Shown: positions 63,025 to 64,000 of the stretch, in pieces
Numbering within the stretch: the stretch's first letter is position 1
How the letters are laid out: every line of letters begins with the position of its first letter
Source: Octopus vulgaris
Lineage: Eukaryota
Length of the DNA stretch: 64,000 nucleotides
Direction: 5' to 3'
Assembly: GCA_951406725.2 (NCBI GenBank)
Contig: OX597816.1
Location: 182,032,001 to 182,096,000 of the forward strand
The notes under the pieces: model-generated
Database searches by the model: none
Told to the model about the DNA's origin: nothing
The model's input: the letters and a program-made list of their open reading frames with translations, nothing else
Made by a program: the position numbers and the translations under genes

Positions 63025-64000
63025 AATACCAAAAATACCAACAGAAAACCAAATAAGAAACCACTGCCCTCTTCCCCCACATCACCACCTCAATACTACT
63101 GCAGTAACAAAAACTTAAAGAAACATAGGAAGCAGAATGCACCCCCCACAGCACAAACAAGAAATCCCAAAATATGCCGCTATTTACTGCGCCAGAGACT
63201 CTGCATAAATAGTGACTGCATCTTCACGCATCTACCCGGCACTAGACGCACTACCGGCCAAGGCCAAAGCACGCATCCCACAATAACATCAACACCACCA
63301 AATAGTAAATCGAAATTCAAAACACACACAACTCGGAGTCCCAAAATCTGCCGGTATTCCCAACGTGAGAGAACATGTCTGCTGAGTGACTGTCCCTTCA
63401 CTCATCTTCCAGGGACCCGACGCACAAACAGAAACGGGGCTTCAAGCCAACACACAAACCTGAATAAAAATAAAAATAGAAACACACCATGCTGCAGTAA
63501 TGCTGGTCCAGTCTTTTCAGGAAGACACAAAAACAACAACAACAAAAGTGGAAACTACAACCCTATCCAACAGTGCAACCACACCTCCAGCCAAAAACTG
63601 CTCCCTAAGCAGGAAAATTCTTTTTTAGCCATGTTGAACATGGCAAAAGAGATACACAAAAACATTCTAGCCATCACTCAACACCATCCTATGCTATTAC
63701 CCCAGTGCACCAATTCCCCACATTGCTGCCACTAACACACACAAAAAATCCAAGCCCCCTGCAACAGTCAAAACCAGCCACTACACTAACCTCCACATTC
63801 CTACTCAATGCACAAGGTGTCAGCCCTTCCATCAATGCACAAAAATGGAAGGTCCAATTCATTGAAGACTGGTTGGTAACCATTCACACCACATCCCTTT
63901 CTTCATTCTCACTGAGACACACCTTGACAACTCCCACTTGGAAGCCGAAGTGAGAATGAAGAATTTCACAACCATCCGCGCGGATCGTATCGGCAGGAGG
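63025..64000 (+). mobile_element. Second, 5'-truncated copy of the 56005-60645 LINE (ORF1 3' half, start of ORF2), running off the window
   Basis: Near-identical reverse complement of about 58839-59812. Confidence 0.95.

Follow-up and report, generated by a model that had tools for sequence, protein, structure and literature searches.

A conserved candidate -1 ribosomal frameshift signal at the ORF1/ORF2 junction of a LINE clade present in Octopus vulgaris

How the second open reading frame (ORF2) of long interspersed nuclear elements (LINEs) is translated is an open question, and reviews list reinitiation, entry resembling an internal ribosome entry site (IRES) and 2A peptides, and treat the ORF2 protein (ORF2p) as a separate product (PMC5009743, PMC3708506, PMC3894237). 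The question is raised here by a 64,000-nucleotide stretch of the 2.8-Gb Octopus vulgaris genome (GCA_951406725.2, contig OX597816.1, positions 182,032,001 to 182,096,000 of the forward strand), hereafter the window, whose own numbering is used unless another contig is named. A 5'-truncated LINE copy of what we call family A starts at about 63027 and continues beyond the window end. Its ORF1 and ORF2 overlap around a slippery heptamer, and comparison with relatives marks this junction as a genuine candidate signal for -1 frameshifting that is conserved within a clade of LINEs.

The family A junction and its proposed translation

The ORF1 part of the studied plus-strand copy (63027..63735) encodes two CCCH-like fingers and then a 37-codon tail that runs from the heptamer to the stop codon at 63733-63735. 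The heptamer U_UUU_UUA (63621..63627) stands in the exact X_XXY_YYZ register of ORF1, whose codons read AAT TCT TTT TTA GCC. The downstream ORF lies in the -1 frame and is open from the heptamer on; upstream this frame is closed by a TAA at 63606..63608, four codons 5' of the heptamer, which is the same in 30 of 30 loci (L001-L030). The ORF2-frame start (63609..64000) covers a linker and the N-terminus of the endonuclease, with the 3' end of the element lying past the window. The heptamer register, the closing TAA and the extension of ORF1 over the ORF2 frame had been proposed by a sequence-only reading of the window, and all three were confirmed. A 1-base deletion at about 63870 breaks the ORF2 frame in the studied copy, which is dead, and the question concerns the family.

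The -1 frame was identified as ORF2 by its continuation in a full-length family A copy on the minus strand (56099..60640), which bears Exo_endo_phos and RVT_1. The ORF1 of this copy (Met at 60326) has a Myb/SANT-like region just below the Pfam cut-off and two CCCH-like fingers with a weak Pfam hit, and its ORF2 encodes an apurinic endonuclease (APE)-type domain followed by a reverse transcriptase (RT) (PF14529/PF03372, PF00078). The profile search with the endonuclease matched L1 endonuclease structures, which a PDB search with a single endonuclease sequence did not, and no protease domain was found by Pfam. These domains, with the upstream ORF1, the frequent 5' truncation and the short-repeat 3' end, mark an APE-type LINE, and the junction is the ORF1/ORF2 boundary of a young two-ORF element of this type.

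Probably, low-level -1 ribosomal frameshifting at this boundary yields an ORF1-ORF2 fusion. Most ribosomes would finish ORF1 and release an RNA-binding protein of ~407 residues (ORF1p), and a small share would slip back one base on the heptamer by tandem tRNA slippage, read the poorly conserved linker and then the endonuclease and reverse transcriptase, and give a fusion of ~1,410 residues; one RNA would thus supply much ORF1p and little ORF2p. The slip rate is probably low because no RNA stimulator was found, and a low rate may suffice, since, by the argument of reviews, very little ORF2p is needed (PMC3894237). The sequence-only reading had also seen no ORF2 AUG before the endonuclease domain. 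In L011, an intact copy with six Ts in the run, the first ORF2-frame Met indeed falls 200 residues past the site, after the invariant endonuclease residues Glu41 and Tyr112.

Conservation in sister families and in other organisms

The heptamer is conserved across relatives, beginning with three sister families in the same genome (the row counts for B and C were made by eye). Family B, at ~76% nucleotide identity, has the same heptamer, a -1-frame stop ~7-9 codons upstream and a conserved ORF1 tail, and lacks the segment that carries an upstream AUG in family A; of the 20 copies fetched, 7 extend to the junction. Among 100 listed rows of 127 matches, the six-T run is intact in 92, altered in length in 5 and altered by substitution in 3, and length changes just upstream of the run keep to multiples of three, with 2 of these rows as exceptions. 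Counted over 27 codons starting at the site, families A and B differ by 21 substitutions, 13 of them at ORF1 third positions, so the ORF1 frame does extend beyond the run. Family C is more distant (ORF2 37% identical); its heptamer is U_UUU_UUG, and its -1 frame opens 3 codons before it. Of 156 matches 100 rows were listed, and among these the heptamer is kept in 83 and the length changed in 16. A family C junction is present on the plus strand of the window (49354..49519), with the -1-frame stop at 49354-49356, the heptamer at 49366-49372, an ORF2-frame AUG at 49465 and the ORF1 stop at 49517-49519. In family D, 20 copies were fetched, 5 reach the junction and 4 of these keep the heptamer.

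Relatives outside this genome were collected with the endonuclease and comprise 14 metagenome loci and the best 80 of 304 loci in bacterial-labelled assemblies, the latter most likely host contamination. Upstream DNA suffices in 13 metagenome loci (L194 has none), and each of these combines a -1 overlap with a shift-type heptamer, which is G_GAU_UUU in 7, G_UUU_UUA in 2 and U_UUU_UUA in 4; one assembly locus, L208, has A_AAA_AAC, which does not code for Phe-Leu. A quick tree of the endonuclease, with 56 rows and without L204, which was too short, places the metagenome relatives, L208 and families A-D in one 18-row clade (Shimodaira-Hasegawa-like approximate likelihood ratio support, SH-aLRT, 100). 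A -1 overlap of 40-99 codons with a shift-type heptamer was found in 17 of 17 assessable clade rows, 13 of them from other organisms. The heptamer itself thus changes across the clade, among U_UUU_UUA, U_UUU_UUG, G_GAU_UUU, G_UUU_UUA and A_AAA_AAC. No ORF2-frame AUG precedes the first endonuclease strand in family A, L193, L197-L202, L204 and L195/L196. In most metagenome relatives the first ORF2-frame Met lies just after the conserved Asn of that strand, which aligns with the Asn of L1 and which we take to be catalytic.

Beyond the clade, the layout is mixed. An ORF1 was called automatically in 20 assembly loci, L208 included: the overlap is in the -1 frame in 7 (5 with a heptamer and 2 without), 8 are in +1, 4 are in frame and 1 is in -1 without overlap, and L250 and L279 add U_UUU_UUA, seen by eye. 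The -1 overlap with a heptamer is therefore a trait of the clade, seen again in two other branches but not general among LINEs. One separate branch (L250:4818-4850, L255:4803-4845, L275:4857-4880, L279) carries U_UUU_UUA 2-4 codons before the ORF1 stop, with a very short -1 overlap; in L250 a GGG directly follows the heptamer, as in HIV-1, and the sister L277 is in +1 instead. In L261, L264, L267, L269 and L276 no ORF1 was detected, and a 2A-like NPGP follows a hydrophobic stretch at the ORF2 N-terminus (compare PMC3708506).

The background of shift-type sites is 24 in 5,940 upstream ORF1 codons. In 20 of the 23 families with a -1 overlap, which are related to one another, the frame opening is no more than 20 codons away from such a site; when the families are collapsed to 11 lineages, a site falls in the overlap in 11 of 11 (P about 1e-6.6). 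With canonical sites only, 6 of 11 lineages have one against 2.0 expected (P 0.007), and the remaining 5 have tolerated variants. Stops of the -1 frame occur at 8.5% of upstream codons, giving a background open run of ~12 codons against overlaps of 40-99 codons; at at-risk codon junctions, 0 of 146 are -1-frame stops, compared with 25.8% upstream.

These overlaps bear on termination-reinitiation, which operates in SART1 and has been proposed for L1; here ribosomes would start again next to the ORF1 stop, on an AUG or a near-cognate codon, and the heptamer would be a by-product. Each of the four families does have a start-like ORF2-frame codon 7-10 nt ahead of the ORF1 stop; it is an AUG in families B and D, an AUA in family C and a CUG in family A. 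This CUG (63726..63728, 7 nt before the stop) corresponds to an AUG in family B, is a candidate start and is kept in 80 of 80 aligned copies. Overlapping stop/start junctions are established (PMC3708506, PMC2699510), and L1 ORF2 initiation is called AUG-independent (PMC5009743). An AUG overlapping or adjoining the ORF1 stop is present in families B and D and absent in family A, however, and reinitiation leaves unexplained why the -1 frame stays free of stops over the 40-99 codons that precede the ORF1 stop, why its closing stop usually sits just 5' of a shift-type heptamer, within a few codons, and why the same layout is kept in lineages without any AUG. Reinitiation may act beside frameshifting in families B and D; as the explanation of the junction it is unlikely.

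The heptamer could also be the coding shadow of an (S/D/Q)-F-L motif that opens the C-terminal helix of ORF1, with ORF2 started by an internal route. F-L followed by an amphipathic-looking helix is indeed found in most relatives. Nevertheless, the codon choice is slippery almost throughout, L208 has A_AAA_AAC without F-L, and the long open -1 frame would remain unexplained, which makes this explanation very improbable.

The N-termini of ORF1 vary (family A compared with L196, L202, L219 and L232), being Myb/SANT-like in this genome and PHD-like in L202, and the CCCH-like fingers and the Phe-Leu/helix tail persist, suggesting module exchange in ORF1 upstream of a fixed junction. PHD fingers occur in the ORF1 of two relatives, L202 and L275, and together with C-terminal motifs they make these elements candidate members of the CR1 group (CR1 / CR1-Zenon / Crack). 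The search with the ORF1 protein gave no relatives among 6,531 candidates, and the endonuclease alignment found no relative in viral contigs, where there was one weak RT hit.

Several other observations concern the surroundings of these elements. Intact eukaryote-type LINE contigs (L207-L286) are present within many bacterial and archaeal genome assemblies. In the window, further fragments at 37156-38769 (minus strand) and 61016-62636 (plus strand) are members of families B and D, more distant LINE fragments occur at 41541-42786, 39205-39582, 24487-24831 and 45315-45527, and the LINE insertions lie within (AT)n microsatellites.

Length of the U-run and RNA structure around the heptamer

A five-T consensus with a conserved AUG-led ORF2 was the outcome that the sequence-only reading had set against itself, and the family-wide count gave another result. 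Exact patterns found 206 six-T and 100 five-T family A copies in the genome. An open-gap pattern matched 356 copies, and among the first 100 listed, on which run lengths were scored, 60 have the six-T length, 58 of these with an intact heptamer; among the others, 18 are -1, 10 are -2, 9 are -3, 2 are +1 and 1 is +3. Six Ts were also found in the site-spanning contigs of three of four independent sequencing runs, the fourth being fragmented there; such contigs give no allele shares.

The full-length minus-strand copy carries the five-T allele (run 59213-59217), so that its ORF1 ends at TTT TAG and its ORF2 is led by an AUG (59338) 40 codons upstream. The five-T run could accordingly be taken as the working allele and the six-T run as a decay product. 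The 100 five-T copies exist, the only full-length copy in the window carries five Ts with both frames intact, and the upstream AUG, which in the studied copy is in the third frame (63500..63502) and reaches ORF2 only in five-T copies, is kept in 77 of 77 family A copies covering it. There is, however, no five-T lineage. When 80 copies (50 picked as six-T and 30 as five-T) were aligned against the minus-strand copy, the two alleles shared the same haplotype groups. One group that looked rich in five-T copies was resampled regardless of run length, and of its 26 loci with the diagnostic bases 20 reach the junction, 11 with the six-T length and 9 shorter; a separate five-T lineage was thus rejected, the alleles being mixed within these older haplotypes. 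Moreover, the run lengths make up a ladder of deletions that starts at six, the AUG segment is absent from family B, and the ORF1 tail that five Ts would remove is conserved. Five Ts as the working allele is almost certainly wrong and already largely refuted, and the five-T run is a recurrent derived deletion from the majority six-T state.

Candidate causes of these deletions are RT slippage, DNA slippage and assembly error. A general homopolymer error was rejected, as 9 of 10 other assessable runs of 6-7 bases vary in no more than 5 of 57 copies, and the majority of them in no more than 3 of 74. There is a second deletion hotspot, an A6 inside ORF2 (~57521-57526, minus strand, 1,699 nt past the junction) that has lost an A in 11 of 40 copies and is itself an in-register A_AAA_AAC; loss there and loss in the U-run are uncorrelated across copies (7/20 against 4/20). 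The loss of an A inside ORF2 must be null, so frequent deletion need not be functional. In an inverted duplicate of one insertion (L041 and L068, C4:24934509-24945017), which is 5'-truncated and has shared flanks, the arms differ at the U-run, at two other homopolymers and at six bases, one arm carrying three homopolymer deletions.

Another explanation places the slip in a polymerase, RNA polymerase or the RT of the element adding or dropping Us, so that runs of four or seven Ts would put ORF1 and ORF2 in frame. Deletions are frequent in the run of family A, and both the 10 copies at -2 and the 2 at +1 in the sample above are in-frame fusions. HIV RT slips at U6A in vitro, with ~2% omission and 1.4% addition (PMC5737442), and RT slippage is also treated in PMC5737552. 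In some copies, for instance C5:118856342 and C1:211651251, a single open frame of 1,468 codons spans ORF1 and ORF2, which is what a run of four Ts would produce; such copies could make the fusion without shifting. Against polymerase slippage, relatives with only 4-5 Us or with an A-run keep the site in the codon register of ORF1, family B changes length in just 5 of 100 listed rows, and six Ts dominate in every family examined, no search having been made for a four-T lineage. It is quite improbable as the way in which ORF2 is reached.

The sequence-only reading had joined the heptamer to a hairpin as a frameshift cassette. The heptamer part is supported, with its clade-wide -1 overlap, and the hairpin is not supported as a stimulator. 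The palindrome directly after the heptamer (63628-63644), and the pairing of the U-run with downstream purines, are both present in the predicted fold of 63619..63652, a 7-bp stem with a 3-nt loop extended by 8 bp of U-run/purine-run pairing (-16 kcal/mol, z -4.6, 0 of 200 shuffles). As had been noted at first sight, the usual spacer is lacking, and the slip site itself is paired, so a ribosome on the heptamer would be expected to melt the hairpin. Looser counterparts in families B, C and D likewise pair the U-run (in family C with an A-run), and between A and B two pairs are compensatory and two are broken. No stem-loop or pseudoknot was recovered as a stimulator 5-9 nt downstream. Without a spacer, burying the slip site and unconserved outside the families of this genome, the hairpin was rejected as a clade-wide stimulator, and it is unlikely to act as one in family A. 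An alternative, weaker stem-loop 4 nt past the heptamer (63632..63683, -10.8 kcal/mol, z -2.5) excludes the hairpin and is without a counterpart in B, C and D. In addition, G_GAA_AAU (63612..63618) is a possible second, weaker shift site that is not kept in family B, and the G+C-rich top of the hairpin begins 9 nt after it, a canonical spacing.

Weight of the evidence, known systems and meaning

Several points weigh against -1 frameshifting at this junction. The slip, its rate and the fusion protein are inferred from sequence. As regards the run, 40 of the first 100 listed family A copies are not at the six-T length, and as regards the start, families B, C and D, L203, L205/L206 and L208 carry an ORF2-frame AUG before the endonuclease. 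Downstream folding was scored in 21 families and reaches z -2.1 in family A only, with values near 0 in the other 20, and a simple scan for H-type pseudoknots matches 1 of the 21. Both the 20-codon window and the relaxed class of heptamers were set with the sequences already in view, the relatives are non-independent, and the open-frame test is partly circular, the sites having been sought within the open frame. Most sites also encode the conserved Phe-Leu before the helix, so protein constraint contributes. With these points counted, the gag-pol-like reading is partly supported, and much more strongly than the first copy alone allowed.

The closest likeness is to HIV-1 gag-pol and other -1 signals of retroviruses and long terminal repeat (LTR) retrotransposons, which share the in-register U_UUU_UUA, the -1 overlap and a fusion of a structural ORF with the polymerase at a low ratio (PMC5009743). 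Unlike HIV-1 gag-pol, the present element is non-LTR, has no protease domain by Pfam, no GGG after the family A site and no conserved stimulator at 5-9 nt across the clade. According to Atkins 2016 (PMC5009743), U_UUU_UUA, G_GAU_UUU and A_AAA_AAC are in use as shift sites, and G_UU is tolerated as the first triplet. The G_GAU_UUU of seven metagenome relatives is the site of pea enation mosaic virus, one of the umbravirus/dianthovirus type (PMC5009743); there, however, such sites need a 3' stem-loop and long-range pairing.

The idea is not without LINE precedent, given a review statement on Dictyostelium: a figure legend gives a -1 frameshift as required for ORF2 of TRE5-A and TRE3-A, which are APE-type non-LTR elements (PMC5911963). 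These are amoebozoan and tRNA-gene-targeted, whereas a clade-wide site with alternative heptamers is described here. SART1 and mammalian L1 also have two ORFs on one RNA and need little ORF2 output (PMC3894237, PMC3708506). Unlike the present clade with its 40-99-codon -1 overlap, SART1 overlaps its ORFs at a UAAUG, and in L1 a spacer lies between the ORFs and initiation is unconventional; both give a separate ORF2p (PMC3708506, PMC5009743). Recoding within non-LTR elements is further represented by the 2A-like StopGo of CR1/L2/Crack/Rex1 LINEs, the HeT-A gag shift and Paramecium LINEs (PMC5009743, PMC3708506, PMC5405496). However, 2A splits one ORF and the HeT-A shift lies inside gag, neither being a -1 ORF1-ORF2 fusion, nor are the +1 shift, reinitiation or readthrough suggested in PMC5405496 for Paramecium.

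The accessible part of Atkins 2016 (PMC5009743) names the HeT-A gag shift and the unconventional L1 initiation, and no LINE -1 ORF1-ORF2 shift was found in it. Reinitiation, IRES and 2A are discussed for LINE ORF2 in PMC3894237 and PMC3708506, and PMC5006619, PMC7175516 and PMC2699510 treat, in their accessible parts on ORF2 translation, only types of reinitiation junction. No -1 ORF1-ORF2 shift for animal LINEs was found in the full-text literature, whose coverage leaves subscription journals, Repbase reports and supplements aside, so that a remark there is quite possible.

A broader form of the frameshift reading stands, in our estimate, at even chances. It holds that -1 frameshifting is inherited across the clade of animal LINEs with a CCCH-finger ORF1 and recurs in at least two other branches, that the protease-less, gag-pol-like fusion is the working retrotransposase, and that shifting is driven by the bare heptamer or stimulated by the nascent ORF1 peptide or ORF1p, not by downstream RNA structure.

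If -1 frameshifting at this junction is true, many LINE ORF2 annotations would start too late, and an ORF1/ORF2 frameshift in such consensus sequences would have to be kept as a feature, not damage. The enzyme would bear the RNA-binding domains of ORF1, tying it to its own RNA, and the clade would offer a set of natural eukaryotic shift sites seemingly without downstream structure. A clade-wide -1 site thus makes the question of how ORF2 of these LINEs is translated precisely and cheaply testable.
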